Counted from the stretch's first letter, positions 2 through 64,000 are shown. The stretch is DNA of 64,000 nt from Abditibacterium sp. (GCA_965199495.1 CBDASK010000003.1:1536001-1600000); one strand, 5' to 3'. The notes: generated by a model not told the origin, from the sequence alone. A program made the numbers and translations.

Positions 2-1141
2 CCGACGATCAAAGCGTCGTGGGCCGACGGGCGCACCATCGAAGGCACGCCCAATCATCGCGTGAAAGTCGCCAACGCTCAAGGCTACGATTGGAAACGC
101 TTGGACGCTTTGGAAGCGGGCGATTACGTTTCGGTGAAGTTGGGCGCGAATCTGTGGGCGGACAAAGACGCGAATTTGCTCGACGGCTTCGAGGCGTCGG
201 CGCTTTATGGTTGCCAGAAAACGATTACTCTGCCCGCGAAAATGACGCCGGATTTGGCGCGTTTCTTGGGAATGTATATCGCCGAAGGCAACATGACACG
301 CAGCAACTACATGGTGCGCGTGACTAACCTCAACGCCGAAGTTTTGAGCGCGTGCGAACGCATCGTTTTCGAGACGTTTGGCATTACGGGGCGCGTCGAA
401 ACCGACAAGCGCAACGGCGTGACGAGTTGGGTTTGCGCGTCCAAATCATTGTGCGAGTTTCTGACGCACATCGGCGCGGGCGGCGATTCGAGTAGCAAGC
501 AAATCCCGTGGTCGGTTTTGCAGTCGAGCGAAACCTGCGTGCGCGAATTTATCGGCGGTTTGTGGCTCGACGGCTACATTCGTCAAGACGGTATGACGGC
601 GATTTGTCTCAACTCGCCCGAACTGTTGCGGCAACTGCAAGTCGTGCTGAATAACTTCGGTTTGCGCGCGCAACTGATTCAAAAATACAACAAGGTTTAC
701 GACAAGTTCTTTCACGAACTCGGTTTGCACGGCGCCGATTCGCGTCGCTTTGGCGAACTGTTCCGTTTGGACGACGCGCACAAAACCGAGGCATTGGCCA
801 AATTGTGCGAAGTCGCCAAAAAAGTCGATGCGGTTCACTCGGACGTAATTCCGGCGTTCCGCGCCGAAATTCAGGCGTTCGTGCGCGCCAAACACGATAC
901 GCAACGGTTCCGCAACATCTTCGATGCGCGCACCAAACATCTATCGCGTCATACCGTGGCCGCCGTGGCTGCATTCTACGGCGAAGAGTTGTTCAAAGCG
1001 ATTCCCGACTTGCGCGAGATCATGGACAACAACATTCACTTCGTCGCCCTGCGCGAAATCGAAGAAGGATTCGCGCCGGTTTACGATTTCCAGGTGCCGA
1101 CCAATCACGCGTTCTTGGGCAACGGCATGATCAATCATAAC
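2..1141 (+). mobile_element. Intein with LAGLIDADG homing endonuclease (N-terminus outside window)
   Basis: Block B TPNH (47-58), LAGLIDADG-like LGMYIAEG and IGGLWLDG, block F/G VYDFQVPTNHAFLGNGMINHN followed by +1 Thr (codon 1142-1144). Confidence 0.93.
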
Positions 1142-1909
1142 ACGGTGAATATGCCGCAGGACTGCACAGCCGACGAAATTTATGATGCCTATCTGCAATC
1201 GTGGAAAATGGGCGTGAAAGCGGTCGCGATTTATCGCGATGGCAGCAAGCGCACCCAACCGCTTTCGACGGCTTCGGACGCGCAAAAGGCCGAAAAAGCC
1301 GACAAGAAAGAAAGCGAAATCCGCCGCGCCGCGCGTCGCAAACTGCCCGACGAGCGCAATAGCATCACGCATAAATTCTCGATCGCCGGGCAGGAAGGTT
1401 ATTTCATGGTCGGTTTGTATGAAGACGGTTCGCCGGGCGAAATCTTCATCAAAATGTCGAAGGAAGGTTCGACGATTTCGGGCTTGATGGATTCGTTTGC
1501 GGTCGCGGTCTCGATGTGTTTGCAATACGGCGTGCCGTTGCGCGTTTTGGTGAATAAATTCTCGCACACGCGCTTCGAGCCGTCGGGCTACACCACTAAC
1601 CGCGATATTCCAATCGCCAAATCGTTGATGGATTACATCTTCCGTTGGTTCGACCTGAAGTTTCATCCCAACGGCGACAACGGTTACGCGGGCAAAGTTA
1701 CAGCGACGGTCGTGCATGCCGCCTTGCCCGAAGCTTCGCTGTTTGAGAGCGAGGGCGGCGGCAATCACGGTAACGTCGGCAACGCGCAACGCGAAGTCTC
1801 GCAGATGCAGCAGGACGCGCCGCCGTGTCCCGATTGCGGCGCGCTGACGGTTCGTAGCGGCGCCTGTTACAAATGTAACGAGTGCGGCGCCACGACCGGT
1901 TGCGGTTAA
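2..1909 (+). CDS. nrdJ: Class II (B12-dependent) ribonucleotide reductase, 5'-truncated by the window, intein-containing
   Basis: After the intein: TVNMP..AY..SWKMGVKAVAIYRDGSK..QPL, then a C-terminal domain (RRKLPDERNSITHKF..GEIFI) and a Zn ribbon CPDCG..CYKCNECG. Frame is open from base 2. Confidence 0.92.
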   Translation, partial: PTIKASWADGRTIEGTPNHRVKVANAQGYDWKRLDALEAGDYVSVKLGANLWADKDANLLDGFEASALYGCQKTITLPAKMTPDLARFLGMYIAEGNMTRSNYMVRVTNLNAEVLSACERIVFETFGITGRVETDKRNGVTSWVCASKSLCEFLTHIGAGGDSSSKQIPWSVLQSSETCVREFIGGLWLDGYIRQDGMTAICLNSPELLRQLQVVLNNFGLRAQLIQKYNKVYDKFFHELGLHGADSRRFGELFRLDDAHKTEALAKLCEVAKKVDAVHSDVIPAFRAEIQAFVRAKHDTQRFRNIFDARTKHLSRHTVAAVAAFYGEELFKAIPDLREIMDNNIHFVALREIEEGFAPVYDFQVPTNHAFLGNGMINHNTVNMPQDCTADEIYDAYLQSWKMGVKAVAIYRDGSKRTQPLSTASDAQKAEKADKKESEIRRAARRKLPDERNSITHKFSIAGQEGYFMVGLYEDGSPGEIFIKMSKEGSTISGLMDSFAVAVSMCLQYGVPLRVLVNKFSHTRFEPSGYTTNRDIPIAKSLMDYIFRWFDLKFHPNGDNGYAGKVTATVVHAALPEASLFESEGGGNHGNVGNAQREVSQMQQDAPPCPDCGALTVRSGACYKCNECGATTGCG

Positions 1910-1911
1910 AC

Positions 1912-1945
1912 AAAAGAGGACGCGGCGCAAGTCGCGTCCTCTTTT
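1912..1945. terminator. Intrinsic terminator
   Basis: AAAAGAGGACGCG-loop-CGCGTCCTCTTTT directly after the nrdJ stop. Confidence 0.8.
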
Positions 1946-1967
1946 CATTTACTTTTGAGGAGAAAAC

Positions 1968-2484: not shown

Positions 2485-5286
2485 TCATTTCGCCACATAA
2501 ACCCGATACTTCCAACCATCCAATTTCAACGTCGGCGACGCATTTAGACTGACTTTGGAACTATGAAACGCATCAGCGTATTGCCCCGCGACATCGGTGC
2601 TTTTCAGCGTCACGGTTTGCGGTTGTTCGCTCAGATTGACCACGACCAAAACTTTGTTTTTGCCGTTTTGTCGCGTAAAAGCGTAAATTTTGTCGTCGTT
2701 ATCGGTCGCGATTTTGGCGAAACTGCCGCTCGAAAGCGCCGGATTATTCTGGTAAAGTTCCAGCAAATGATGATAAAACGGGTAAACCGCCGACCCGGCG
2801 CGCGCAGCAGCCACGGGCGACGGATCGGTTTTGGAAAAGCTCAATTCTTGCCCGTTATACAAGAGAGGTTTGCCCGGTAAAGTCGCGTTCAAAACCATTA
2901 ACGGCGCGACTTGCGGCATACCCGGTTTGACTTCGACCGGCGTGCCGGTGCCCCAGCCCCAATCGGCGTGCGGGTGCCAATCGTGGTTGTCCACGAAACG
3001 CATCAAAACCGAGCCGACCGGATAATCGCGCGCCTCGCGGCGCAACTGATCGTCAATGGCCGTGGCCGGTTTGCGACCGGCGGTGATGTCCCACAAAATC
3101 GGCGGCATCGCCCAATCGTAGCTCATATCGAACGCCGGATGAATGCCGGGATTATCGGCTTCGGCCAGCATAAAAACCGGCTTGATTTTCGTCAACTGCG
3201 GACGCAACCACTGCCAGAACTCAACCGGCACGCGGCCATTGCTGCCCGCGACATCGGCGCGAAATCCATCAACGCCGTAATCGCGCACCCACATTGCCAT
3301 GTTGTCGCGCATCAAATTCCACAACGGCTGATTCCAAGCGCCCGCTTTTCCATAATCGAGCTGCGCGACATCGGGCCAATTATAGGCTTGCATAATTTCG
3401 CCCGCCGCGTTTTTGGCGTAGAATTCGGGATGCTCTTTGATCCACGCATTGTCCCACGCAGTATGATTGGGCACCCAATCCATTATCACCCGCAAACCCA
3501 ATTTATGAGCGCTGTCAACCAATTGTTTGAACTCGGCTTTGGTGCCGAAATCGGGATTGATCGCGGTGTAATCGCGCACAGAATAGGGACTGCCGAAACC
3601 TTTCTCGGTGCCGCGCGGGTGCAGAGGCATAAACCACACGATGCCCACGCCCATCGCTTTGAGCGAGGGCAAATGCTGCTCGAATTCGCTCAAAGCCTGG
3701 CCTTTGGGAAATGAATACAAGTCGAGATTGACTTCATAAATCGACTGGTTTTTCGCCCAATCTGGCCCGGCGACAGTTTGCGTGGTGAGTGGGCCATTCA
3801 TTTTCAAAGGCAGACCGGGCGCCGACAGCAAATACGGCTGATATTTCTGTGCGCTCACCGTGAAGGGCGGCGACGTGGCTGCTAATCCGCCCGCGCCAAA
3901 ACGCGTGGTTTTGGAGCCGTCGGTCAAATCGAATTGATAGCTCAAATCGCTCTTGCGATTCCACGGTACATTGGCAACATAATACGAATAATACGCGTCC
4001 GTCATGGTCAAGCGGGCCGCATATTTCTGGCCCGCCGCTTCGACCGCGACGCTTTTCAAGTCGTCGGGCCGCGCGCGCAACACCAGCGCGATTTGACCGT
4101 TATCGTAACCCAAATCGCGCGGGCCATGCGGATGAAAGAGCGCTTTAGTCGCCGTCACGCCATCATCGGAATTGGCGGGTTTGTCGTAACCAACCGGCTT
4201 GATGAAAAGCACCGAGTTATCGTTGACTTTATCGGTTTCGTCGCGCGGCGCGTTGGAGTCAGCGACCCAATCTTCGCTGTTCGCGCCGAATTTGACGAAT
4301 TTGTAAAGATAGCGCCCCGGCGCGAGCGGCAAAGTCAAGCGCCACGTCAAACCGTCGGCATCAGCATGAAGCGGATTAGCGGTGTTCTTCCAACCGTTGA
4401 ATGTGCCGACGACAGCGACGCTTTTCAAAGGTTTATCGGCCTTGAAGACGAACGCGTGCGGCACGTCGCTCGGCTCGCCGGTTGTGCCCGCGCCCGCCGC
4501 GATTTCGTTGACCGGCGCCGGGGCATCGGCATCGGCGACAACGCCGCCCAGAGGCAACAAATCTTTGGGCTGCGCCACGACCAAAAGCGAGTTGTCATTG
4601 ACTTTATCTGTCTCGTCGCGCGGCGCTTTGGGGTCAACGATCCAATCGCTTTCGTCGGGCGCAAAGGGCGCGAACTTGTAAACATAACGGCCCGGCGCGA
4701 GCGGCAAACTCAGGCGCCACGAGAATCCGCCGTCGCCGCTCACCATCGCGTTTTTGGTTTTGTCCCAACCGTTGAAACTGCCGACCAACTGAAGTTTGTC
4801 CAGTTTTTTGGCGGATTTGTAAGCGAACGGTTGCGCGATGATTTGCACCATCGAATTGCCGTAAGTCGTGTCTTCCAGGTCTTTGGGCGCATTCGGATCG
4901 GCGATATATTCGCTGCCATCGGGCGCGAATTTATAGTCGTAGCGACCGGGCGGAAGCGGCACGCTAACACGCCACGTCAGACCATCGGCATCGGCTTTCA
5001 TCGGGTTTTGCGTGGCGTTCCAGCCGTTGAAAGTGCCGACCAGCGCGACGCTTTTTAATTTTTTATCGGCTTTGTAAACGAACTCGTGAGGCACCATGCC
5101 CTGTTCGGGTTGCGCGCCCCATTTCGGGTTGGCGAGCGCATCGGCGACGAGCTTGACTTTGGCGGGATTGAGCGCGGTCGGCGCCAAATCTGCCGAGCGG
5201 CTGCAACCAGCCACGCCGACAAGCGCGAGCGCTAAAAACGGCAGCGTGGTTTGGCGAAAGGGAAATTTCCTGTTTTTCTTCATCAT
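2485..5286 (-). CDS. GH13 alpha-amylase-family lipoprotein with three CBM48-like glycogen-binding repeats
   Basis: Lipobox VAGC; three V.LVG.FNGW..W..LPL.PGRY.YKF repeats; GH13 motifs DWVPNH, GFRADVA, LAEA, FVDNHD. Confidence 0.9.
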   Translation of the reverse strand: MMKKNRKFPFRQTTLPFLALALVGVAGCSRSADLAPTALNPAKVKLVADALANPKWGAQPEQGMVPHEFVYKADKKLKSVALVGTFNGWNATQNPMKADADGLTWRVSVPLPPGRYDYKFAPDGSEYIADPNAPKDLEDTTYGNSMVQIIAQPFAYKSAKKLDKLQLVGSFNGWDKTKNAMVSGDGGFSWRLSLPLAPGRYVYKFAPFAPDESDWIVDPKAPRDETDKVNDNSLLVVAQPKDLLPLGGVVADADAPAPVNEIAAGAGTTGEPSDVPHAFVFKADKPLKSVAVVGTFNGWKNTANPLHADADGLTWRLTLPLAPGRYLYKFVKFGANSEDWVADSNAPRDETDKVNDNSVLFIKPVGYDKPANSDDGVTATKALFHPHGPRDLGYDNGQIALVLRARPDDLKSVAVEAAGQKYAARLTMTDAYYSYYVANVPWNRKSDLSYQFDLTDGSKTTRFGAGGLAATSPPFTVSAQKYQPYLLSAPGLPLKMNGPLTTQTVAGPDWAKNQSIYEVNLDLYSFPKGQALSEFEQHLPSLKAMGVGIVWFMPLHPRGTEKGFGSPYSVRDYTAINPDFGTKAEFKQLVDSAHKLGLRVIMDWVPNHTAWDNAWIKEHPEFYAKNAAGEIMQAYNWPDVAQLDYGKAGAWNQPLWNLMRDNMAMWVRDYGVDGFRADVAGSNGRVPVEFWQWLRPQLTKIKPVFMLAEADNPGIHPAFDMSYDWAMPPILWDITAGRKPATAIDDQLRREARDYPVGSVLMRFVDNHDWHPHADWGWGTGTPVEVKPGMPQVAPLMVLNATLPGKPLLYNGQELSFSKTDPSPVAAARAGSAVYPFYHHLLELYQNNPALSSGSFAKIATDNDDKIYAFTRQNGKNKVLVVVNLSEQPQTVTLKSTDVAGQYADAFHSSKVSLNASPTLKLDGWKYRVYVAK

Positions 5287-5369
5287 TTGGGTCGGGAAAA
5301 AGGCAAACGGAGCGTGAAATTGATTTCACGCTCCGTCGTTAAAAGTTTCGGGGCGCCAGAGCGCGCCAT

Positions 5370-6131
5370 TTACTTCAAGCGATTCTGCTGCTCGCCCAGA
5401 GCGTCGCGCAAAATCGTCGGCACCGCGTCCGTCGTCGGGTTGACCGTCCACATATTGGCGCCCGTCACGGTCGCCATCGGTTTGAGCGACTTGACGTGGC
5501 CATCGGCAAACAGGAAATTCGTCATGCCCAGATGATTTTGGAAATTGGTATTGCTGCCACCCGCCAAATCTTCGACCTGATACAAATCCGCGTTGTTGGC
5601 GTTATCGGAGTGTTCCAAAACCAGAATCGTCTGCGAGGAACTTTCCAACTGCGCCAGCGCCGCGCCACCCGAAACGGGACGATCAATCTCGCCACGATTC
5701 ATCGGACGAATGCCGCCCGCGTTGGCGCTGGCCGGACTACCCGCGCCGACGCCCGGCTGATACGAGCCGCCGCCGTTGCACATATAAGACGCCGACGCCG
5801 CCGCCGCGTTGTTGACTGTTGTCGTTGGCGTGTAGGATGGGCACTTGAACACCTGCCAGCTTTTGATGTAGGGCTGAACGGTGTAATGCCACGGATAAGC
5901 GCCGTTGTCCCAGCAGGCGAAAGGCAGTTTTTCGTCGTAATCCTGCGTGTATTGCAAAATGCCCAGACCGATCTGCTTGAGATTGCTGGTGCATGAACTG
6001 CGCCGCGCGTTTTCGCGGGCACGCGCGAAAACGGGAAACAGAATCGCCGCCAAAATGGCGATAATCGCGATAACAACGAGAAGCTCGATCAAAGTAAATG
6101 CAGAGTTTTTGTGTGAGGAAATTTTGAACAT
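5370..6131 (-). CDS. Prepilin-type N-terminal cleavage / DUF1559 protein with H-X9-DG motif
   Basis: [46 protein letters not shown]-terminal [15 protein letters not shown]. Confidence 0.92.
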
Positions 6132-6230
6132 GATGTGCGTGAGCGCGGAACCGAGGCCACGCGAATACGGTTGAAGTTGGGCGCGGCGTCGCGCAGTTGC
6201 AAATAGTTTTGCCGGTTGAATGAGGGGAAC

Positions 6231-7358
6231 TCAAACGGCAACGGGACTGGGAAAATTAGCAAAGTTCGGCCACTTTTGACGGCAGGACAAGCGCGGAATC
6301 AGGCGCATCGGCACCGCGCGATGTTGGCGCTGGGGCGGCAGTTGATCGTGTGCGCGGCTCCACACCAAATCGGCGGCTTCGCGGCCAATCTCGTCCCACG
6401 GCAGGTGCAGCGAAGTGATGTTGTGCCGCCGCGCGGCGGGCGAATTATCGAACGCCACAATGGCGGGCCACTGCGCGCGTGGCACATTGGCGGCAAGCAA
6501 GCCGTCCATGAAACCCAGCGCGACCGCGTCATTGGCAGCCACGACGCCGCGAATGTCGCCGCGCCCCAGCAATTCGCCCGCGAATCCGCGTCCGATGGCG
6601 CGCGCACCCGCCGCGTCATCGTTGGCTTCTTCACGCGGACAAAACGCCATCGCGTGATAGGGCAAACCCGCTTCGGCCAGCGCGCGCGCCCAGCCGTTTT
6701 CGCGCTCGCTCGACCATTCTTTGGCGCTGCTGCCCGACGTGGCTGCATGAACGCCCAGATAAGCGATGCTCCTGAAACCGCGCTCGATCAGATGATGGGT
6801 GGCGCGATAGCCGCCATCTTCGTTATCGAAAGACAACAGATCGAGCTGCTCGCCTGCGCGCCAGTTGCCGCCGATGCGCGCCAGAGGCACGCTCTCATCG
6901 AACAAACCTCGCAGCGAAACCTCGTCGAGCCGCTCTTCGCGCACCAACAAAAACGCGCCGTCAATCTTCAAGTCGCGCCACGAATCGTTGGCCTGCGACA
7001 GCTCCAACGACAAAGCCACGCCGCCGCGCGCCGCCACACGCGAATCGAAACCGATCTGAATCTCCGTCGCGTAAGGATGCGGCGACGCGTCATCAATCAA
7101 AAACACCTGACACGACGCGGCTTCGGCTTCGCCCTGCCCCGCGAACGAACCGACTTTGGGAACCGCGCGAAACAAACCTTCGGCCTCCACCATCTGCAAC
7201 GCCCGATGCGCGATATAACGCGAAACTCCGTGCTGCTGGGCGACAGCACTCACGGTTGGTAACATCGCCCCCGGCTTCAAAGCGCCGCCGACCAACAAAG
7301 CGCGCAGCGATTGCTCTACACCTTGCTGTTGCTCGCGAGTTTCCTGTCGGCTGGCCAT
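6231..7358 (-). CDS. GntR-HTH / LacI-type sugar-binding transcriptional regulator
   Basis: LKPGAMLPTV..VA..HGVSR HTH; DNEDGGY.AT.HL, AANDAVALG, IVAFDN. ATG start chosen at MASRQ. Confidence 0.85.
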   Translation of the reverse strand: MASRQETREQQQGVEQSLRALLVGGALKPGAMLPTVSAVAQQHGVSRYIAHRALQMVEAEGLFRAVPKVGSFAGQGEAEAASCQVFLIDDASPHPYATEIQIGFDSRVAARGGVALSLELSQANDSWRDLKIDGAFLLVREERLDEVSLRGLFDESVPLARIGGNWRAGEQLDLLSFDNEDGGYRATHHLIERGFRSIAYLGVHAATSGSSAKEWSSERENGWARALAEAGLPYHAMAFCPREEANDDAAGARAIGRGFAGELLGRGDIRGVVAANDAVALGFMDGLLAANVPRAQWPAIVAFDNSPAARRHNITSLHLPWDEIGREAADLVWSRAHDQLPPQRQHRAVPMRLIPRLSCRQKWPNFANFPSPVAV

Positions 7359-7642
7359 GATAAATAGAGTATACCCAGATTCAAACAGTTTCAAACATAT
7401 TTTCAGATAGAATTTACATTCTTTATAAGCCAGCAATTTTCAAATTTTGAATGGACGCCTTTGCCTAAATATCGCCGCGCAGAGAAGGGTTGCGGTTAGT
7501 CCGCGAAAAAGGTAAGTTAAAAAGGCTGGCAATAAGAAGGGAATTGTTCAAATTTCCGGCGTTTTCTGCTTTCTAATTCTGGCTGCTGTTTTACTATAAA
7601 GTCTCTTTCAAAACTCATCTGGTTTTGCGATAATTTGTTCAA

Positions 7643-8224
7643 ATGGAACTGACACACGAACGAGGGGCACTCATTCCCGCCAAGCCCGGCCAATTCGCTA
7701 ATCTCGGATGGGCGGCGCTGTGCGCGCTGGGCGGCATCAGTTATGGCTGGGCGCAGCACATTGTAGCGCCGCGCGCGGCTTATATTATCGGCGGCACTTT
7801 GTTGGGCGTGGCTGCGGTATTGGTCGCGATTAATCTCGTCAACTATTTTCGTCTGGAGCGCGAAGGTTGGTGGATGCCCATCGAAGCCGAACCGTTTGGC
7901 GGCGGACGCACGTTGGAAGGCAAAGGCTGGATCGTGGACGTTCAGGACGATCACATTCATACTATCAATCATGGCCGTTACGGGCCAGTTGAAAACATGG
8001 TGCGTCTGGATGCGATTAAGCGCGTGGACGTTTTGGGCGACGGCGCCAGTCTGGTTTTGACCAACGAATTCGTCAATCCTTATATGTCCATCGAATGGGA
8101 TTTTCTGCCCAAAGCCCAACGCATCGCTTTAATTCGTTGGGTACGCGAACACACGCAAAACGCGCTGTTTACGCCGTTCGCCGAAGAGATCGAAAGCGGC
8201 TGGTTTCCGCGCGCCGTGCGTTAG
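7643..8224 (+). CDS. Hypothetical membrane protein
   Basis: Two hydrophobic N-terminal segments. Confidence 0.65.
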   Translation: MELTHERGALIPAKPGQFANLGWAALCALGGISYGWAQHIVAPRAAYIIGGTLLGVAAVLVAINLVNYFRLEREGWWMPIEAEPFGGGRTLEGKGWIVDVQDDHIHTINHGRYGPVENMVRLDAIKRVDVLGDGASLVLTNEFVNPYMSIEWDFLPKAQRIALIRWVREHTQNALFTPFAEEIESGWFPRAVR

Positions 8225-8232
8225 TTATTTTC

Positions 8233-8829
8233 ATGCAAACACCGTTAAATCCCGAACAAATCGAACAGGCATTGCGCGAAAGCGGCGCTTGGTTAGAAGG
8301 TCATTTTCTGCTGGCGTCGGGGCGTCATTCGGCGCAATATATCGAGAAATTTCGTCTGCTCGAACAGCCGCGTTTGACTTCGCAATTGTGCGCTGAAATC
8401 GCGCGGCGCTTTGAAAACGACGACATCGAATGCGTCGTCGGCCCGGTGACGGGCGGCATCATTCTGGCGTTTGAAGTCGCGCGCATTTTGGGCGTGCGCG
8501 CGGTTTACGCCGAACGCGCCGACGACGGCAAAGGTTTCGCGTTGCGGCGTGGCTTTGAACTGAAGCCAAACGAGAAATGTCTGGTCGTCGAAGACATCGT
8601 GACAACCGGCGGCAGCGCGCAAAAAGTCGTCGAATTGGTGCGCGCCAACAACGGCCACGTCGGCGGCGTGGCTCTATTGGTGGATCGTTCCAATGGCGCG
8701 TTGCAAATTGATGCGCCGCGCGTGGAATCGCTGTTGACGATGCAAGTCGAAAGCTGGGCGCCCGGCGAAGCACCGGCGTGGCTCAGCGAAAAATATGGCC
8801 CGGCGCGCAAACCGGGCACGACGAAATAG
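8233..8829 (+). CDS. pyrE: Orotate phosphoribosyltransferase
   Basis: GHFLLASGRHS; PRPP motif LVVEDIVTTGGS. Confidence 0.93.
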   Translation: MQTPLNPEQIEQALRESGAWLEGHFLLASGRHSAQYIEKFRLLEQPRLTSQLCAEIARRFENDDIECVVGPVTGGIILAFEVARILGVRAVYAERADDGKGFALRRGFELKPNEKCLVVEDIVTTGGSAQKVVELVRANNGHVGGVALLVDRSNGALQIDAPRVESLLTMQVESWAPGEAPAWLSEKYGPARKPGTTK

Positions 8830-8832
8830 ATA

Positions 8833-8937: not shown

Positions 8938-8940
8938 ATT

Positions 8941-55146: not shown

Positions 55147-55443
55147 AATTTACTGCTCCTCCTCGATTTGATTCTTCGAGAAATTTTGAAGTAACCTATT
55201 CTACCCATTTCGGCTTTTTTTCAAACAGGTTTCACTCAAAACAGCCGTAATTTATGGAAGGTAACGCGCTTTATGGCGGTGTTTAAAGCTTAAATTTACG
55301 CTCTGCATATCAACGAACCCTCTAATTTCGAGCGTGATTATCGTTAATGTTAAATTATGTCAATAATAAGAAAACGACGCTGTTCCAAGAAAGAACAGCG
55401 CCGTTTTCCAACAAATATTAGGATTATGATCTCGCGCCACGAC

Positions 55444-56733
55444 TTACGCCGTGGCTGCTTGCAGCGCCTGCTCCAAATCTTCCCGCAAATCGTCAATGTC
55501 TTCCAAGCCAATCGAAAGTCTCACCAATTCCGGTTTGATGCCGCCTTCCAACTGCTGAACCGGATTGAGCTGCGAATGCGTCGTCGTCGCCGGGTGAATC
55601 GCCAGACTTTTGGCGTCGCCGACGTTGGCCAAATGCGAGAACAATTTGCAATTCTCGATGAATTTGCTGCCCGCCTCTTTGCCGCCCTTGATGCCAAAAA
55701 CGACCATCGCGCCGCCTTTTCCCTTCAGATATTTCTTCTGAAGTTCATATTGTGAATCGCCTTCCAAACCGGGATAGCGCACCCATTCGACGGCGGGATG
55801 ATCCTGCAAAAACTTGGCGACGGCGAGCGAATTTTCGCAGTGTCGCTCCATGCGAAGCGGCAACGTCTCGATGCCCTGAATGAAAAACCACGAGTTATCC
55901 GGCGAAATGCACGCGCCCAGATTGCGGAGCGGCACGGTTCTCATGCGTAAAATGTAGGCGAGCGGCGCCAACATTTCAGGCAAATCGTGGCCCCAACGCA
56001 AACCGTGATACGACTCGTCGGGATTGTCGAACAACGGATGCTGCCCGGCTTTCCAATCGAATTTGCCGCCGTCAATCACGATGCCGCCGATGCCAACGCC
56101 GTGACCGCCGAGCCATTTCGTCAGCGAATGCACCACGATGTCGGCGCCATGTTCGAGCGGATTGGTGAGATAAGGCGTCGAAAAAGTCGCGTCCACGATC
56201 AAGGGCACGCCGTGTTCGTGCGCGGCTGTGGAAATCGCGTCCAAATCGGAGACTTCGAGGGCGGGATTGGAAACGGTTTCGCAGAAGAACGCGCGCGTTT
56301 TTTCGTCGGCGGCGCGGGCAAAGTTTTCCGGATCAGTCGAATCCACAAAGCGCACTTCGATGCCCATTTGCGGAAGCAACACGTCGAATTGGGTGAACGA
56401 ACCGCCATAAAGATTGCGCGCCGAAACGATGTTATCGCCCGCTTGCGCCAGATTGATAATCGAATAAAAGACCGCGCTCGAACCAGAAGCCACGCCCAGT
56501 CCGGCCATTTCGTGGGCGCCTTCGAGCATCGAGACGCGTTTTTCCAAAACGTCGGTCGTCGGGTTCATCAGGCGCGTGTAGATGTTACCCAGTTCTTTGA
56601 GGGCAAACAGATTGGCGGCGTGTTCGGCGCTTTTGAAAAGATAAGCCGAAGTGCGATAGACCGGCACGGCGCGCGAAAGCGTATCGCTATCGGGCTTTTG
56701 GCCGCCGTGCAGACAAATTGTATCGAATTTCAT
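55444..56733 (-). CDS. metY: O-acetylhomoserine aminocarboxypropyltransferase
   Basis: IYTRLMNPT, HSLTKW.GGHG, HLANVGDAKSL.IHPA.TTH. Confidence 0.93.
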   Translation of the reverse strand: MKFDTICLHGGQKPDSDTLSRAVPVYRTSAYLFKSAEHAANLFALKELGNIYTRLMNPTTDVLEKRVSMLEGAHEMAGLGVASGSSAVFYSIINLAQAGDNIVSARNLYGGSFTQFDVLLPQMGIEVRFVDSTDPENFARAADEKTRAFFCETVSNPALEVSDLDAISTAAHEHGVPLIVDATFSTPYLTNPLEHGADIVVHSLTKWLGGHGVGIGGIVIDGGKFDWKAGQHPLFDNPDESYHGLRWGHDLPEMLAPLAYILRMRTVPLRNLGACISPDNSWFFIQGIETLPLRMERHCENSLAVAKFLQDHPAVEWVRYPGLEGDSQYELQKKYLKGKGGAMVVFGIKGGKEAGSKFIENCKLFSHLANVGDAKSLAIHPATTTHSQLNPVQQLEGGIKPELVRLSIGLEDIDDLREDLEQALQAATA

Positions 56734-56779
56734 GGGAGCGGCTTAGTCTAATTGAGCGCAAAAACTGTGGCTGCAAATC

Positions 56780-56831
56780 GTAGGGGCTTGCCGCGCAAGC
56801 CCCAGACGTGAATACGGCTTACGCGGCAAGC
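56780..56831. repeat. GTAG-type REP-like hairpin with a degenerate inverted partner
   Basis: GTAGGGGCTTGCCGCGCAAGCCCC followed by GGCTTACGCGGCAAGC. Confidence 0.55.
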
Positions 56832-57242
56832 TTTATTTAATTCTAAAAATTTTGTGGAATAACCAAACAATGTTCTCACTCATGACACATTGCGACATCA
56901 AAAGCGGTCTAATATCTCCTTGACCCCCGGCGGAACGTTTGGCTTTTGTCTTCGTTTATTCAAAGGAGACGAGAGTTGCCTTGCAACAGCATTTTGTGTT
57001 ATAAGGTAGAGTTGCGTTTCCCCGCACCAAGTTAAAACTTCGGTTTGATTGAACGTATAAAATCGTTTTGCAGACCGATTGAACATCTTTAAAACTGCCG
57101 CATTTAAAAGCATCTTTCCGATAAGAGCCAAGAATTGTCATCCAAAACACGCCTTTTTCAACAGAACCTGAACCCGCGAGGGCTAAGGTTTTTTGTGTGT
57201 CTGGGGCGCACGCGGATGAAGAGGAGCAAATAAACACACTGA

Positions 57243-58130
57243 ATGAGCAAGCAATATCCACAAGGCAATAACTCGCGCGGCGTCGAAGCCACGTCGTCGG
57301 CCCTCCCCGATGCCGTCGCGGCCTGGGTCAAGATGGCGCAGAAAACGCCGTTGCTCACCGCCGCCGAAGAAAAAGAACTGGGTCGCCGCATCGCGCGCGG
57401 CGACGAAGCCGCCTATAAACGCATGGTCGAGGCCAACCTGCGCCTCGTCATCACGATGGCTTTGAAGCAGTTGCATCAGGGCCACAATCATTCGCTGACG
57501 TTGGCCGACCTGATTCAAGAAGGCAACTTCGGCTTGATGCGCGCCGCGCGCAAATTCGATCCAGCATTGGGCTACCGTTTCTCAACCTACGCCTCGTTCT
57601 GGATTCGCCAAGCCATGAGCCGCGCCATCGCCGATCAAGCCAAGATGGTGAGAGTCCCGGCGCATATCGCCGAACTCACTAAAACCGCCTATCGCACGAT
57701 TGCGACGCTGGTTCAATCGTTGGGTCGCCAGCCGACAGTTGAAGAGTTGGCGCACAAGTTGGACGTGACCAAAGAGACCGCCGAATTGGTGTTGAAGAAC
57801 ATGGCCGAAACGTTTTCGCTCGACGATGAAATCGGCGATAGCGGCGACGGCGAAGATTTCGTGGATATGCTGCGCGACGTGGATGCCATCGTGCCCGAAG
57901 AGGCCGCCGAAACCGCGATTCTGCGCGAGGAAGTGCGCTCGGCGCTGGACGAATTGACCGAACGCGAACGCGAAGTCGTCAATATGCGCTACGGCCTGAG
58001 CGGTGGCCGCGCCCACACGCTGCAAGAGTTGGGCGCGCACTTCAAAGTCTCGCGCGAACGCGTGCGCCAAATTGAAGGTCAGGCTTTGCGCAAACTGCGC
58101 AAAGGCGGACTGAACGACGCAGTGAATTAG
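57243..58130 (+). CDS. Sigma-70 family factor (regions 1.2-4, no region 1.1)
   Basis: PLLTAAEE, ANLRLV, DLIQEGN.GL, RFSTYA.FWIRQ, SRERVRQIE. Confidence 0.93.
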   Translation: MSKQYPQGNNSRGVEATSSALPDAVAAWVKMAQKTPLLTAAEEKELGRRIARGDEAAYKRMVEANLRLVITMALKQLHQGHNHSLTLADLIQEGNFGLMRAARKFDPALGYRFSTYASFWIRQAMSRAIADQAKMVRVPAHIAELTKTAYRTIATLVQSLGRQPTVEELAHKLDVTKETAELVLKNMAETFSLDDEIGDSGDGEDFVDMLRDVDAIVPEEAAETAILREEVRSALDELTEREREVVNMRYGLSGGRAHTLQELGAHFKVSRERVRQIEGQALRKLRKGGLNDAVN

Positions 58131-58138
58131 GACGACAA

Positions 58139-58180
58139 AATAGAAAGAGCCTGCGATGAATTTCGTAGGCTCTTTCTATT
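58139..58180. terminator. Intrinsic terminator
   Basis: AATAGAAAGAGCCTGCGA..TCGTAGGCTCTTTCTATT. Confidence 0.75.
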
Positions 58181-58195
58181 TTGATCGGGGGAACA

Positions 58196-58726
58196 ATGAA
58201 AACGCTTTATTACCCGCTTTGGTATCGTCTTGATAGCGTGAATCGTTACCTGATTTGGATCACTCAAATGGAAGCAGACGAAGATTTGGATGGCGTTTGG
58301 CTCGATTTAAACGGCAAAATCCCCGTTTTTCGTTCGCTCGATGCGCTGTGCGCTTACGCTCAAGACAGGAAAATAATGCTTCAAGACGACGAACCTATTT
58401 TGCATAATTTGGACGTGATAAAGCGCTGGCTAAAAGTCAAGCGTTCCAAAGCGCAGGGGCCGACTTCGATTGATTGCGACGCGTTTTTGGCCGCGTGGAA
58501 TTTCTTCGCCGATGTCTCGCGCTCCCTTGGCGGTGGCTTCGATGCTGACCGCGAGCGCACAAAGAAGATTTATCTCAAGATTTTTTATGGCAACAATTTG
58601 CCCGCAATTACGCCCGCAGGGGAATATTATGTTCCGCGCTGGTCGAATCGCGAAAAGCGGATAATCCGCGAAATCATGACTTACGGTTTGAAAATGCTGC
58701 GTGCCAATGTCGCATACGTGCCATAG
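58196..58726 (+). CDS. Hypothetical protein
   Basis: ORF with GGGGGA upstream of the ATG. Confidence 0.65.
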   Translation: MKTLYYPLWYRLDSVNRYLIWITQMEADEDLDGVWLDLNGKIPVFRSLDALCAYAQDRKIMLQDDEPILHNLDVIKRWLKVKRSKAQGPTSIDCDAFLAAWNFFADVSRSLGGGFDADRERTKKIYLKIFYGNNLPAITPAGEYYVPRWSNREKRIIREIMTYGLKMLRANVAYVP

Positions 58727-58768
58727 CGTTTGCGGCGGCGCAATCGAATTAGTAAAATTGCTCCAATT

Positions 58769-59794
58769 ATGAAATCTGCCCAATTGTTTGTTGCCGCTTT
58801 ATCGCTTACGAGCGTCAATGCGTTTGCCCAACCCAATCCGGTTGCGGCGCCGATGGTCGCGCCCAAACCTATTTTAGCGCCGATTGATGGGACGAATTGG
58901 AGCGCGATAGCCGTGCGCAACGTGCCACCTTCACTTATCGCATGGCAACTCGACCAAAAACACAACGCGATGCCCGCGTTTTTCAACATGCCTTACGCGC
59001 CGCCGACAAAATATGCGGCGGATTATAAAGCGCCGCCTCAGACGAAAAACCCGTTCGATTTAGCCGATGAAACGCGTTTGGTGGCGTCCGATGAACAAAA
59101 ATTATTGTTTGTTGGCGGAGGCGACACGCAGCAAATCGCGAAAGTGCGCGAATTGGTTTCGATGTTCGACCAACCGTTGCGCCATGTCGAAATCGAGGCG
59201 CGGTTTGTTCAGTTATCGAATGTGGAACTGAAAGAATTTGGGATTGTCGCCGATGCAGCCACGCCGGGCACGCCCGGCGTGGCTGCACCAATCGAAGGCG
59301 CGATTTCACTCGGTTTCGTGCGCGGCGATTTTCAAAAGCGATTGGACGAAATGGTCGCCGATGGCAAAGCCAAAGTGATTTCGACCAAACCGCAAATCCT
59401 CACTAACAACATGGGCCTCACGATTTCGCTGCTTTCTGGCCCGATTGATAATACCGGCGCCAATCAGAATAAACGTCCTGCCGCGCCCGCCAACGGCACC
59501 GATACGATTTTCACCGTGACGCCGACAATTAACGGCGACGGTACCATCACCGTTTTGATGAATATCGCGACCTTGCCCGTAACTGCGAATTATTTGGGAT
59601 TGGAGACCGTTGCCAACATGCGCAACGGCGATACAATCGCGTTGATGGGTCTAAAGTCGTCGGTGATTCCAAGCGCGATGAGGAATGATAAAATTTCGAT
59701 ATATGGAAATATTCCTGATATTGGTTCGTTATTCCGCTCGAAAAATGTCGTGATGTTTGTGACCGCACGCATCGTGCGCGATGACGAAAAATAA
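58769..59794 (+). CDS. Short secretin-like protein 1
   Basis: Signal peptide; FDQPLRHVEIEARFV, AKVISTKP, VTPTINGDGTI, NGDTIAL.G, IPDIGSLFRS, MFVTARIV. Confidence 0.8.
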   Translation: MKSAQLFVAALSLTSVNAFAQPNPVAAPMVAPKPILAPIDGTNWSAIAVRNVPPSLIAWQLDQKHNAMPAFFNMPYAPPTKYAADYKAPPQTKNPFDLADETRLVASDEQKLLFVGGGDTQQIAKVRELVSMFDQPLRHVEIEARFVQLSNVELKEFGIVADAATPGTPGVAAPIEGAISLGFVRGDFQKRLDEMVADGKAKVISTKPQILTNNMGLTISLLSGPIDNTGANQNKRPAAPANGTDTIFTVTPTINGDGTITVLMNIATLPVTANYLGLETVANMRNGDTIALMGLKSSVIPSAMRNDKISIYGNIPDIGSLFRSKNVVMFVTARIVRDDEK

Positions 59795-59845
59795 TGCGCA
59801 ACATTCTGCGATAACTGTAATCGAATTTGAGTCCGATAATTTCTT

Positions 59846-60745
59846 ATGAAACATCTTCCTCTCCTCGCGCTTGTGGGCGCCGTCACGTTTTTGGGCACAA
59901 CTGCGGGCACTTTCGCGCAAACGGCGCAGCCGCCAGCGCCCGCGAAAACCGAGAAAGCGCCGGAATTAATGCGCACCATAAAAATAAAAAACGTGCCTTC
60001 GGCGTTAATCGCTTACTGGCTCGATCCCAAACACAATGCGCGTCCTGCCGCTTTGGGCGAAGTGAACTCAAACCGTTATGGCGCACCGCGCGAAGCCGAA
60101 GAGAAGGGCGCGTTTACGTTGCCCGGCGACATCAGACAAGTCGTTTCGGTTGACCCGCAAAACGTGATTTTAGTGGCGGGCGGCAGCAAAGAAGATATGA
60201 ACCGATTGGAAGAGTTAATTGACGTGTTGGATCAGCCGCTTCGACAAGTCGAAATCGCGGCACAGTTCGTCGAGATGAACACCGCCGATGTGAGCCAGTT
60301 CGGCATTGACACTAACGTTGCGGGCAAAGGGGACATTGGCTTTGTGCGCAGTAATTTTAACGCGCAGTTGAATAAGCTCATCGGTGAAGGAAGAGCGAAA
60401 GTCGTTTCGGCCCCGCGCGTGACCGCTATCAATAATGTGCCCGCGACGATCAATGCAGCCACGCCACCGACGAATGGAAAGACACCGAAATGGGTTTATA
60501 ATCTCACGCCAACCATCAATGGCGACGATACGATCACGATTTTATTCCAGCCCGTCGCGGAAAAAGGGGGAATCGAAACCGTTGCCAATGTCCGCGATGG
60601 CGATACCATCACGATGATTGTGCAAGCCACTCCGCAAACGACAGATGCGATAAACGCTCTCCCCGCATTAAAGACAACTCTGGTGTTTCTCACTACCCGC
60701 ATCATTTGGCGCGCCGGGGAAAAATTATCTGTTGCGGGGAAATGA
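59846..60745 (+). CDS. Short secretin-like protein 2
   Basis: LDQPLRQVEIAAQFVE, AKVVSAPRVTAINN.PA.I, LTPTINGDDTI, VRDGDT. Confidence 0.8.
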   Translation: MKHLPLLALVGAVTFLGTTAGTFAQTAQPPAPAKTEKAPELMRTIKIKNVPSALIAYWLDPKHNARPAALGEVNSNRYGAPREAEEKGAFTLPGDIRQVVSVDPQNVILVAGGSKEDMNRLEELIDVLDQPLRQVEIAAQFVEMNTADVSQFGIDTNVAGKGDIGFVRSNFNAQLNKLIGEGRAKVVSAPRVTAINNVPATINAATPPTNGKTPKWVYNLTPTINGDDTITILFQPVAEKGGIETVANVRDGDTITMIVQATPQTTDAINALPALKTTLVFLTTRIIWRAGEKLSVAGK

Positions 60746-60821
60746 AATCTTGAGATTAAAAACCGAATAAATTTCGGTTTTTCCCTTATGCTGTTAGTTG
60801 CAAGTTACCAAATTTACTACC

Positions 60822-61769
60822 ATGAAACAAATCACTCTCGTCGCCCTGTTGGGCGTGGCTGCATTGCAGGGAACAACGATGGGCGTTTGGGCGCAAACAG
60901 CGCCCACGATGCCCGCAACCAAACAAGACGCGAAAGTGAACTTGCATTATTTTCGCTTGAAAAACGTCCAGCCTTCGTTGATGGCGTATTGGATCGATCC
61001 AGACCATAATCCGCTTCCCAACGATTCGGACAGAGACGCTCATATATATGGCTCGCTCAAACAGTACTGGCCCGATGCCACGCTGAGCAATGAGAAGGAG
61101 GAACGGAGATTTAAACTTCCGGCGAACGTCGGTCGAGCCATCGCCTCCGACGAACATGACGTTTTATCGGTCGAAGTTGACGATGCCGATGTGGAACCGC
61201 TCCGGGAGTTGCTCAACTCTTTGGATCAACCGCTTCGCCGAATCGAAATCGAAGCGCAGTTCGTCGAAATGGACAAAGCGGATTTGAAAAAGTTCGACCT
61301 TGATATAGCATTAGGGAATGACAATCATGGCATGAGCGCCGGTCTCATGGGCGATAATTTCGCATCCACGCTGAACGAGCTGGTGGCTCAAAACAAGGTG
61401 AAGATTATCGCGGCGCCACGCGTAAACGCCGTTGATAACGTCATCGCGCAACTTGGAGATTCCGAAAGGCGCCCGATTCTTTCCAAGTCAAACGCCATGC
61501 AAGCAAGGCTTGAGTTTTCGACGAACAAGTTGTGGCTCAACATCGAGCCGACGATTAACCCCGATAATTCGTTGGCTTTGCGCTATCGTGCTTTTCGGCA
61601 AACTTATTTAAGTGCCGTAGAAAAGTCTGGTCAAGGACAAATCGCTGGCGTCTCCGACGGCGCCACGTTCGTTATTAGAAACCCGTTGCTTAGCAATAAA
61701 TCCGAAACCCAATCCGCGCGAGAAACCGTCGTATTTGTGACTCCGCGTATCGTGCACAAAGGTAGATAA
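60822..61769 (+). CDS. Short secretin-like protein 3
   Basis: LDQPLRRIEIEAQFVE, KIIAAPRV...N, IEPTINPD, ETVVFVTPRIV. Confidence 0.8.
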   Translation: MKQITLVALLGVAALQGTTMGVWAQTAPTMPATKQDAKVNLHYFRLKNVQPSLMAYWIDPDHNPLPNDSDRDAHIYGSLKQYWPDATLSNEKEERRFKLPANVGRAIASDEHDVLSVEVDDADVEPLRELLNSLDQPLRRIEIEAQFVEMDKADLKKFDLDIALGNDNHGMSAGLMGDNFASTLNELVAQNKVKIIAAPRVNAVDNVIAQLGDSERRPILSKSNAMQARLEFSTNKLWLNIEPTINPDNSLALRYRAFRQTYLSAVEKSGQGQIAGVSDGATFVIRNPLLSNKSETQSARETVVFVTPRIVHKGR

Positions 61770-61771
61770 CA

Positions 61772-61812
61772 ATAAAAAGGCCGCAGAACATGAGTTCTGC
61801 GGCCTTTTTTTA
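61772..61812. terminator. Bidirectional terminator
   Basis: AAAAAGGCCGCAGAAC-atga-GTTCTGCGGCCTTTTTT. Confidence 0.85.
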
Positions 61813-61822
61813 TATTTTTCTA

Positions 61823-62842
61823 TCAGCCACCGCAACACGAACTCGCCGCCGATTCCGGTTTGCTGGCGACGGTTTCGACTTCAAAGCCCGCCGCTTCGAT
61901 CCAAGCAGCCACGTCGGTGTGATGTTCGCCGGGCGTTGTCAAATAACCGTCAACGAAGAGCGAATTGGCGGGCCACAAAACGCGATGTTGCAATTCGCCC
62001 AAACGTTCGCGCCCGGCGGCGGCGCGGACTTCGGCGCGCGGGTTGGAAAAGCGCATCAGCGACATCACGCGCAGGGCGTGTTGCGCGCTCGTCGGTTGCG
62101 CGATTTGCAAGGGCACGCCTTTGATGCGAATTAAAACGTTAATCGGGATGCTCTCGATTTCCATTTCGCGCAACTGAAAAGCCATATCAATCAAATCGTC
62201 CACGCTTTCGCCCATGCCGACGATGCCGCCCGCGCAGGTATGAAGTCCGGCGCTTTGCACATTGCGAATCGTGTTCAAACGGTCGTCGTAGGTGTGCGTC
62301 GAGCAAATTTTGGGATAGTGATTTTCGCCGGTATTGAGATTATGATTGACGTAATCCACGCCCGCCGCTTTCAAGTCGCGGCATTTTTGCGCGTCCAACA
62401 AGCCCAGACTGGTGCAAATTTCGAGATGGCAAAGTTCGGGCGTGTCGCGAATTTCGGCGATGGCGTTGCCCAGATGTTCGATGTCGCGCGCCGTGGCTCC
62501 GCGCGCGGCGATGGCCATGCAAAAACGCGTGGCGCCCGCGTCAACGGCGGCGCGCGCGCGTTCGACGATTTTTTCTTGGGGCAACAGCCGGTATTTTTGC
62601 ACGGGCGCCGTCGAAATTTTCGATTGCGAACAGTAGCCGCAATCTTCCGGGCAGATGCCGCTTTGCGCGTTGAGCAGCAAACATAATTTGACGCGGCGCC
62701 CGTAATGATGCTCGCGCACGCGCAGGGCGGCGTCTAAAATCGCATCGAGATCGTCGTCGGGCGCGCACAAAACGGCGTGGGCTTGGTCGCGCGTCAGGGG
62801 TTCGTCGCGCAGGGCTTTGTCGGCGAGGGTTTGAAAATCCAC
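61823..62842 (-). CDS. bioB: Biotin synthase
   Basis: CPEDCGYCSQS, NHNLNT, THTYDDR, GGIVGMGE, SIPIN. Confidence 0.95.
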   Translation of the reverse strand: MDFQTLADKALRDEPLTRDQAHAVLCAPDDDLDAILDAALRVREHHYGRRVKLCLLLNAQSGICPEDCGYCSQSKISTAPVQKYRLLPQEKIVERARAAVDAGATRFCMAIAARGATARDIEHLGNAIAEIRDTPELCHLEICTSLGLLDAQKCRDLKAAGVDYVNHNLNTGENHYPKICSTHTYDDRLNTIRNVQSAGLHTCAGGIVGMGESVDDLIDMAFQLREMEIESIPINVLIRIKGVPLQIAQPTSAQHALRVMSLMRFSNPRAEVRAAAGRERLGELQHRVLWPANSLFVDGYLTTPGEHHTDVAAWIEAAGFEVETVASKPESAASSCCGG

Positions 62843-62865
62843 GCATCAAATTATAACGCGTATTC

Positions 62866-63072
62866 GGAATCGCATAACTCACACCCCCTCTGTCCTTGGG
62901 ATCCGCCCAAGGGGCACCCGCCCCCTCCGAAAGGGGGAGAGGCGCTTTTACCGTTCATTACTCGCGTTTGTTTTGGCGATGTCGAAGGTCAAACCGCCTC
63001 TCCCCCTTCGGAGGGGGCGGGTGCCCCTTGGGCGGATCCCAAGGACAGAGGGGGTGTGAGTTATGCGATTCC
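62866..63072. repeat. Long GC-rich palindrome (~78-bp arms)
   Basis: GGAATCGCATAACTCACACCCCCTCTGTCC..GGGGGAGAGGCG and a near-perfect reverse complement. Confidence 0.9.
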
Positions 63073-63126
63073 AACCAACTCTAATTTTCTACGCGCCATT
63101 AAACTAAACCGCCAACGAAAACCTTG

Positions 63127-64000
63127 ATGAAAATCCTGCTGCAACCGCAAACCGCCGTGACCTGCGACGCCGACTTTCGCGTCATCGAAAACGCCGCGAT
63201 TCATATCGAAAATGGCCGCATTACCTATATCGGCGAACGCCAAAACGCGCCCGATTTTGCGCCCGACGAAACCGTCGGCGGCGCGCATTTGATCGCGATG
63301 CCGGGTTTAATCAACACGCACACGCACGCGGCGATGACTTTGGTGCGCGGCTATGCCGACGACATGGCTTTAGAACCGTGGCTGCAAGGGAAAATTTGGC
63401 CTTACGAAGCGAATTTACAGGCGCATCACATTTATAAAGGCACGCAGTTGGCCGCCGCCGAAATGATTCGCGGCGGCACGACGATGTGCGCCGATATGTA
63501 TTTTCACTACGATGAAGGCGCGCGCGCCTTTCTGGAAAGCGGGATGCGCGCGGCGCCCGCCGCGACGTTGCTGGGTTTTTTGCCCGGTGCCGACCAGAAA
63601 ATCGCCGACGGCATCGCGTGGGCGCGCAATTGGCGCGGCGCGGGCGAGGGCCGCATCACGCCGCTGTTGGCGCCGCATTCGCTTTATACCTGCGACCGCG
63701 CGCAGTGGGAGAAAATCGTCGTCGGGGCGCACGAATACGACATTCAAATCACCACGCACGTCAGCGAAACGCGGCGCGAGAACGCCGACGTGGCTGCTTC
63801 GTGGGGCGCCTCGCCGATTCAATCATTGTTCCAAATCGGCGCGCTCGAACAACCATTGTTGGCCGCGCACTGCGTTTATACCGACGAGCGCGACCGCGAA
63901 ATTATGGCGAATACGCCGTTTTTCGTGGCGCATAATCCCCAGTCGAATTTGAAGTTGGGTTCGGGCATCGCGCCGATTCCCAATTATCGCGCGCGCGGCA
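63127..64000 (+). CDS. mtaD: MTA/SAH deaminase-type amidohydrolase, 3'-truncated; absent from the ORF track
   Basis: Own translation: MKILLQP..MPGLINTHTHAAMTLVRGYADD..APHSLYT..HVSE..AAHCV..HNPQSNLKLGSG. Confidence 0.85.
   Translation, partial: MKILLQPQTAVTCDADFRVIENAAIHIENGRITYIGERQNAPDFAPDETVGGAHLIAMPGLINTHTHAAMTLVRGYADDMALEPWLQGKIWPYEANLQAHHIYKGTQLAAAEMIRGGTTMCADMYFHYDEGARAFLESGMRAAPAATLLGFLPGADQKIADGIAWARNWRGAGEGRITPLLAPHSLYTCDRAQWEKIVVGAHEYDIQITTHVSETRRENADVAASWGASPIQSLFQIGALEQPLLAAHCVYTDERDREIMANTPFFVAHNPQSNLKLGSGIAPIPNYRARG

Follow-up and report, generated by a model that had tools for sequence, protein, structure and literature searches.

An abundant asymmetric DNA word in an Abditibacterium chromosome, spaced separately on each strand: a candidate self-DNA tag

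Why should a short, non-palindromic word recur on both strands of one stretch of bacterial chromosome, nearly always within genes? The question is raised by 64,000 nucleotides of Abditibacterium sp. DNA (GCA_965199495.1, CBDASK010000003.1:1536001-1600000; hereafter the window), which lie on contig C3 (4.72 Mb) of a three-contig, 4.81-Mb assembly (genome G000). An earlier note, made from the window alone, had singled out the 9-mer CGTGGCTGC and proposed that it is an uptake-sequence-like or nucleoid-protein binding motif. Here we show that the word is real and selected across the resident chromosome, that its copies are spaced separately on each strand and that it changes between sister species, and we weigh what may read it.

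A selected DNA word of the resident chromosome

All 24 copies of the 9-mer reported in the window (14 on the plus and 10 on the minus strand) proved correctly placed and oriented, and the estimate of about one expected copy agrees with dinucleotide shuffles (0.90 +/- 1.01, maximum 4 in 100 shuffles). Eight copies extend to GACGTGGCTGC, as claimed, 20 of the 24 are followed by A or T, every one lies within a called gene, and the two inverted pairs are real and both intragenic. The 7-mer CGTGGCT, put at roughly 50 copies, was right in order of size, the exact figure being 58, and the readings given as VAA, AAT or PWLQ cover 17 xVAA, 5 AAT and 1 PWLQ copies, one SSHA copy (at 27539) having been missed. 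The motif boundaries had been drawn three bases off: the flanks give the consensus CG[CGA]CGTGGCTG(C)(W), with CGTGGCTG as its core, and the corresponding 10-mer CG[ACG]CGTGGCT occurs 39 times in the window.

Nor is the word limited to the window. G000 holds 1,783 copies of the 9-mer (864 on the plus and 919 on the minus strand) vs 141 of the reversed control word, and 2,801 of the 10-mer, about one per 1.7 kb; CGCCGTGGCTG itself occurs 1,051 times vs 6.9 expected, and the core GTGGC is sharp, any single change there dropping the count to about background. With genes called in this analysis (3,834 genes, 83% coding), the enrichment outlasts the codon and dicodon nulls suggested earlier: 1,606 genic 9-mers compare with 96.2 +/- 9.1 in 10 within-gene synonymous-codon shuffles (17-fold) and with 254 under the dicodon null, the reversed control word in genes giving 132 vs 78 after the synonymous shuffle. 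All six reading frames are enriched, two of them (xVAA and AAT) dominating, and the encoded tripeptides are enriched as well (VAA 1,826 vs 1,334; AAT 1,419 vs 1,057). An artefact of codon or peptide usage is ruled out by both nulls and by the six-frame enrichment; moreover, intergenic copies carry the same consensus as genic ones. Genes carry similar numbers of sense (1,415) and antisense (1,134) copies, and the cumulative strand excess is at most 22 copies at every 250-kb checkpoint, a pattern without replichore skew and unlike that of Chi or of the FtsK-orienting polar sequences (KOPS). Collectively, these results show a real, selected DNA word that is maintained at the DNA level, independently of the direction of transcription and replication.

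The word is also confined to the long-resident chromosome, as shown by its scarcity elsewhere. The plasmid-like contig C1 carries 0 copies vs 14.6 expected and the phage-like contig C2 carries 2 vs 38.3 (the nature of both contigs being judged by inspection), the 12 longest word gaps in G000 are mostly mobile-looking or low-GC islands, and word density is 0.35 per kb in genes with the lowest codon scores vs 0.73 in typical genes. G000 was compared with its relative G011 over 212 orthologues (median protein identity 90%), drawn from a DNA sample of about 0.4 Mb. The word is retained at 113 of 156 aligned sites, control 10-mers at 29-36%, and fourfold positions inside the word are identical in 431 of 457 cases, where matched codons outside it predict 319.6. 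Comparison with G004, which uses another dialect, reveals no such excess (241/396 vs 246.7 expected), and only 18 of 163 sites are kept, below control 10-mers. Hence, the word changes between sister species. Around the word, silent sites match those of G011 to much the same degree at all distances (identity 0.72-0.77 in every bin within 3 kb), divergence being neither lowered nearby nor one-sided. Word-driven amino-acid change was considered and set aside: identity to G004 is lower at the sites (0.73 vs 0.81), yet outgroup matches are near equal (G000 55 vs G004 51 of 88 columns).

Strand-specific spacing and helical phasing

The observed/expected ratio of same-orientation pairs in G000 is 0.08 at 20-50 bp, 0.19 at 100-200, 0.34 at 400-600 and 0.80 at 800-1,000 bp, reaching 1.0 beyond 1.5 kb, and 4-5% of same-strand gaps fall below 600 bp vs 16% expected, so that spacing is more even than random. 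Pairs in opposite orientation, convergent or divergent, stay at 0.8-1.3 at all distances, and of 252 genes of up to 1.5 kb that hold exactly two copies, 222 have them in opposite orientations. When 352 abundant 8-mers were ranked by same-strand ratio, the eight lowest all overlapped the word; a general avoidance of short direct repeats was rejected: control words tend to cluster (median ratio 1.26), and the first non-overlapping word stands at 0.88. These data show that a second same-orientation copy within about 1 kb is strongly avoided and that an opposite-orientation copy is not.

Same and opposite pairs were further counted at 50-600 bp after removal of close inverted pairs. G000 gave 104 same vs 439 opposite, and G011 repeated the pattern (4 vs 23). 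Control loci were fetched by pattern and kept if longer than 9 kb, motif-rich and non-overlapping (27 Neisseria, 43 Pasteurellaceae; small samples, pooled across related species). For the Pasteurellaceae uptake signal sequence (USS), same pairs numbered 45 and opposite pairs 81 (p=0.002), and the first 100 of the 499 plus-strand Chi sites of E. coli gave 9 pairs vs 10.9 expected, without same-strand avoidance. Thus, the pattern is common to a proven uptake signal and not to Chi. Our literature search turned up no paper stating an orientation-specific spacing of uptake sequences. Work by Karlin from 1996 reportedly dealt with USS spacing and may already treat the strands separately. That USS are evenly spaced is already known (PMC2817400, PMC1939737). 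Three same-strand copies about 115 bp apart within pyrE (window 8545-8783, plus strand) form an exception to the spacing.

The flanks of the word are helically phased. In a WW dinucleotide profile (W, A or T) corrected for codon position, peaks stand at -17, -28, -40, -51, -61 and at +29, +39, +51, +62, +74 from the word's first base in G000, with a best period of 11.0 bp. The upstream amplitude at this period is 0.065 vs a mean of 0.013 and a maximum of 0.040 among 250 control 8-mers; the wave fades over about 110-170 bp on each side and is also seen in G011. Among 10 genomes compared, the genome-wide 11-bp signal is strongest in the three that bear the word (16-20 vs 2.5-11). Away from the word this signal is as strong as overall (18.6 vs 17.9); hence, the profile shows a preferred rotational setting of the word and not the creation of the wave by it.

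Dialects, other words and features of the window

Only two of 40 relatives are enriched for the 9-mer, G004 (972 copies) and G011 (1,411). The word is present in 3 of the 13 genomes of the genus, and the three form a clade with support 1.0 (FastTree, five concatenated proteins, midpoint root). Conservation, as examined at the earlier note's suggestion, extends to G011 with the same word and to G004 with the core only, as a dialect; the other 38 relatives show no enrichment. The G004 dialect is longer, GTAGGACGTGGCTGGTGTC; its 15-mer, with 1,535 copies there, occurs 3 times in G000 and never in G011. In G004, 141 of 301 core copies are intergenic, many as inverted pairs, and the long form starts with GTAG and makes intergenic inverted doublets, 18 of 49 just 3' of a stop codon.

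Other members of the family carry other words. The palindrome RAGTACTY has 2,695-4,371 copies in each of G014, G018, G020, G022, G024 and G042 and at most 117 in the other 21 of 27 family genomes; in these six genomes AGTACT-centred palindromes stand about one per kb, within and between genes, and carry species-specific flanks (WTCGAGTACTCGAW in G020, TGCAAGTACTTGCA in G014). The G020 palindrome also avoids neighbours below 400 bp (1/16, 3/20, 18/40). G017 has a word of its own, GACCGTAC, with 68 copies in 79 kb (loci L071, L072, L104, L125), 49 of them intergenic and mostly arranged as a doublet followed by T runs. Altogether, 10 of 27 family genomes have a hyper-abundant word of some kind; none was found in 13-180 kb samples of 16 others, in which a sparse word could be missed, and G005 was scored on four patterns only. 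The comparisons of G014, G017, G020 and G022 and those of the G009 helicase-nuclease locus and of several G000 methyltransferase loci (below) rest on smaller samples.

The copies in the window and its other features are collected in Table 1. The best match of the amylase-family protein encoded there is to an Abditibacterium record (63%), so that, on this one protein, the organism probably belongs to the Abditibacteriaceae. Repetitive extragenic palindromic (REP)-like repeats of several kinds occur at 62-161 copies per genome, with window copies at 39794, 47054, 47174 and 54573. Structured RNA was considered and rejected, the window holding only four tRNAs. The G000 chromosome has a very weak GC skew and very strongly avoids palindromic hexamers, 11 of which stand at or below 0.05 of expectation.

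Table 1. Copies of the word and other features in the 64,000-nucleotide window
Feature	Position	Strand	Remarks
Dispersed word CG[CGA]CGTGGCTG(C)(W)	961..63797	both	39 10-mers, 24 9-mers; part of chromosome-wide array
9-mer copy	964..972	+	AVAA
9-mer copy	2807..2815	-	PVAA; amylase-family gene
9-mer copy	3874..3882	+	AATS
9-mer copy	6535..6543	-	VVAA
9-mer copy	6738..6746	+	AATS
9-mer copy	7807..7815	+	GVAA
9-mer copy	9541..9549	+	AATA
9-mer copy	10604..10612	-	DVAA; prmA
9-mer copy	24402..24410	-	AVAA
Inverted pair in one gene	27514..27547		27514 -, 27539 +; AVAA and SSHA
9-mer copy	30931..30939	+	DVAA
9-mer copy	36839..36847	+	DVAA; RND permease gene
9-mer copy	42777..42785	-	DVAA
9-mer copy	51771..51779	+	GVAA; dapF
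9-mer copy	53665..53673	-	AVAA
9-mer copy	55450..55458	+	AATA
Inverted pair in short secretin-like gene	59255..59286		59255 -, 59278 +; AATP and GVAA
9-mer copy	60455..60463	-	AATP
9-mer copy	60854..60862	+	GVAA
9-mer copy	61905..61913	-	DVAA; bioB
9-mer copy	63377..63385	+	PWLQ; without upstream CG and therefore possibly a chance copy
9-mer copy	63789..63797	+	DVAA
12 more 10-mers without full GC tail	8545..62498	+	starts 8545, 8664, 8774, 12749, 19543, 20603, 25669, 31765, 34797, 38573, 41681, 62489
10 more 10-mers	5209..57296	-	lowest coordinates 5209, 7014, 21799, 29439, 35661, 39626, 46708, 51486, 54279, 57287
Three tandem short secretin-like genes	58853-61769	+	290-315 aa; partial Secretin or Secretin_N matches; further paralogues elsewhere in G000
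RAYT/IS200-like transposase gene	41938-42615	-	
Four tandem tRNA genes	15681-16003	+	

Candidate readers and rival explanations

Since the word ignores the direction of transcription and replication, reaches saturation on each strand over about 1 kb, is a mark of resident DNA and differs between sister species, it appears best explained as a self-tag that would be read with polarity on incoming fragments. We therefore propose, with about even confidence, that it is a lineage-specific tag of self-DNA in natural transformation, USS-like and read directionally. Point mutation together with biased uptake or recombination may have built up such a word. Its reader would act directionally on fragments of about 1 kb, possibly by tracking from a fragment end or by selecting the strand that enters via ComEC; under polar reading each strand would need copies of its own, and a nearby same-strand copy would add nothing. 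A palindromic word would serve both strands together, consistent with the AGTACT words of other genera, and the 11-bp A/T phasing may reflect binding to a single face of DNA that is bent or wrapped. As the reader we would guess at a pilus-tip minor pilin or a step linked to ComEA/ComEC.

The Pasteurellaceae USS (core AAGTGCGGT; PMC2817400, PMC7811141, PMC1939737) resembles the word in being non-palindromic, about 10 bp long and present in thousands of copies, equally on both strands, in its two favoured frames, scarcity in foreign DNA and helically phased A/T flanks, and in the same-orientation avoidance measured here. It differs in its unrelated sequence and its occurrence in another phylum; moreover, the avoidance is stronger and longer in the word (about 1 kb) than in USS (about 0.5 kb), and the phasing of the word is weak but reaches about 100 bp on both sides, whereas USS have two sharp tracts within 30 bp. 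The DNA uptake sequence (DUS) of Neisseriaceae, read by ComP (PMC3630211), likewise has core-sharing dialects along the phylogeny, as seen for G000/G011 vs G004, and its inverted pairs between genes recall the G004 dialect. Unlike the word, DUS showed neither an orientation effect nor long phasing in our measurements, and, unlike DUS, the word is patchy within one genus, in a family that also uses unrelated palindromic words. The inverted pairs that DUS and USS form between genes and in terminators are no feature of the G000 word and are found in part in G004. Hence, by most sequence tests the word appears USS-like, but we do not class it as a USS, as the intergenic and terminator feature is not seen in G000.

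Several observations weigh against a tag for uptake. DUS and USS are over-represented in intergenic DNA and in terminators (PMC2817400), whereas the G000 word is rare between genes: 240 of the 2,801 10-mers are intergenic, density is 0.30 per kb in intergenic vs 0.65 in coding DNA, and close inverted pairs in noncoding DNA or at gene edges number only 24 among 2,799 sites. Neisseria DUS gave 56 same vs 65 opposite pairs (p=0.47), that is, no orientation effect; DUS is without long phasing, and USS has only the two near tracts. Uptake by H. influenzae is reported to be independent of USS orientation (PMC1939737), so that even there the step behind the polarity is not accounted for. A period of 11.0 bp is mostly associated with supercoiled DNA within cells (PMC4132750), a link that is itself disputed (PMC7537859). 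Furthermore, all 27 family genomes carry comEC and 25 of them comEA, word-free genomes among them, and no sequence-specific receptor turned up in G000, no search with ComP or ComN having been made. The earlier proposal of an uptake-like or nucleoid motif thus stands as a resemblance, upheld by the nulls, the absence of skew and the com/pil genes, and is weakened by the rarity between genes, the failure to find a receptor and the competence genes of word-free relatives.

The com/pil genes looked for at the earlier note's suggestion are present in G000: comEC, comEA, dprA, a pilB-pilT-pilC-pilD-minor-pilin cluster and five full secretin domains, with no stop inside the matches. As markers of the word, competence genes do not discriminate, being common to word-free relatives. 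In G012 and G023, both word-free in the samples, comEC is apparently shortened or split, and comEA is short in G012. The minor-pilin cluster that follows pilD (G000:C3:868592-880963) encodes a 618-aa pilin and two tandem PilX-like proteins of about 1,300 aa. The pilin (G000:C3:868592-870445) diverges fast, with 48% identity to G011 vs a 90% median, and its model (pLDDT 78) predicts a pilin fold with three inserted beta domains. This layout recalls the Thermus tip receptor ComZ (PMC6561018), a likeness of predicted fold only: no Foldseek match was found at E<=0.001, the best VIA Z, 5.3, is to a pseudopilin XcpV/XcpW entry, and ComZ is not among the 50 matches listed. As a receptor the minor pilin was set aside, being only 48% identical to G011 although G011 uses the same word, and ComZ not being among its listed matches; the DUF1559 prepilins have too many paralogues to serve as reader candidates.

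The main rival, which we consider unlikely though still a serious contender, is an intracellular site at which a chromosome-handling protein (a nucleoid protein, an SMC-type loop extruder, gyrase or a translocase) loads or stops with polarity, wrapping about 200 bp, with a site per orientation every few kb. It would account for the phase-locking of the word to the 11.0-bp wave above every control, for the three word-bearing genomes having the strongest genome-wide 11-bp signal of the 10, and for the lack of bias to intergenic DNA. Against it, the word is present in only 3 of 13 genomes of the genus, and the 18 of 163 sites kept in G004 would mean rapid turnover for a chromosome signal that is essential; the long range of the phasing may come from the genome-wide wave, which is equally strong away from the word, and strand-specific spacing is shared with USS. 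Chi and KOPS or AIMS (architecture-imparting sequences) are likewise short, non-palindromic and orientation-dependent, yet the word has no replichore skew or origin-to-terminus polarity.

A distinctly less probable reading likens the word to the cyanobacterial palindrome HIP1 (GCGATCGC; PMC5861425, PMC4390886), which is also hyper-abundant, conserved at silent sites and mostly genic, and has a form similar to that of the AGTACT words in six genomes of the family. Here a methyltransferase would mark the asymmetric site on one strand and direct repair, recombination or methylation-dependent transformation, each orientation serving one daughter duplex, and the AGTACT palindromes of other genera would, with the same low probability, be its symmetric form. 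Absence of replichore skew and independent tiling of each strand would be expected of such a mark, methylated HIP1 raises Synechococcus transformation (10.1101/2024.09.10.611283), RAGTACTY is hyper-abundant in six of the 27 genomes of the family, and several matches to methyltransferases occur in G000. The word is not palindromic, unlike HIP1, and no matching methyltransferase was found: the orphan enzyme, the only one compared across genomes, was found in 22 of the 27 genomes of the family but not in word-bearing G004, and was thus rejected as the driver. The flat silent-site identity around the word reveals no local repair benefit, and a consensus of 13-20 bp is long for a methyltransferase site. 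Less probable again is a Chi-like break-repair site that a non-canonical helicase-nuclease would read from either end of the DNA, although polarity suits end-loading enzymes, the G004 dialect includes GCTGGTG (7 of 8 bases of E. coli Chi), and G000 and G004 encode a PD-(D/E)XK + AAA_11/AAA_12 helicase protein of 1,421-1,430 aa. Similar large proteins occur in word-free G016, the skew is lacking, and the E. coli Chi sites sampled show no same-strand avoidance. RecC (PF04257) was found in none of five genomes tested, G000 included, and in G000, 95% complete, neither RecB nor AddA was found (a single UvrD_C match), nor a PDDEXK_1 protein of AddA/B size. Nine of the 10 word-free genomes of the genus, G003 being the one in which none was found, encode a PDDEXK_1 protein that spans about 1,000-1,160 aa and resembles AddAB/AdnAB in size and domains (e.g., G009:C1:1896629-1900336); one of the nine is cut short, and in five genomes the gene adjoins an equally large UvrD_C gene. 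No such protein was found in the 10 word-bearing family genomes; seven word-free genomes of other genera also lack it, and its presence or absence within the genus is a single phylogenetic event. Finally, an origin as remnants or targets of REP and REP-associated tyrosine transposase (RAYT) elements, or in plain codon or peptide usage, is highly improbable and largely refuted for G000, though it may apply to the intergenic doublets of G004 and G017. The GTAG start and intergenic inverted doublets of the G004 long form, the RAYT-like transposase encoded in the window and the commonness of VAA and AAT as tripeptides would fit it; REP/RAYT elements are, however, extragenic hairpin repeats of 20-40 bp, while 91% of G000 copies are single words in genes, without common flanks. 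The enrichment outlasts the protein-preserving nulls, in all six frames and, with the same consensus, between genes, and of the 352 abundant 8-mers strong same-strand avoidance marks only those that overlap the word.

Returning to a directional self-tag, we speculate, only tentatively and with more doubt than belief, that one family runs a fast-evolving self-recognition system in which a polar reader tiles the strands separately at about 1 kb and the word has switched between an asymmetric form (core CGTGGCTG) and a palindromic one (core AGTACT). If so, such switching would join uptake sequences and HIP1-type palindromes in one phenomenon. The strand-specific spacing of USS would then indicate an unrecognised directional step in transformation. 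The comparison of same- and opposite-orientation spacing is cheap, told USS from Chi here, and predicts that two same-orientation copies do not add and two opposite copies do. Sequence-specific uptake tags have been described from two proteobacterial families (PMC7811141, 10.1101/2025.10.24.684340; the same scope is given in 10.1101/2025.06.16.659825 and PMC3630211), and literature searches on Abditibacterium and Armatimonadota turned up no account of the word in the text available. A third system in a distant phylum, if true, would offer word-bearing, dialect-bearing and word-free sister species as a natural comparison in which to search for the reader and to ask why such tags arise and vanish.

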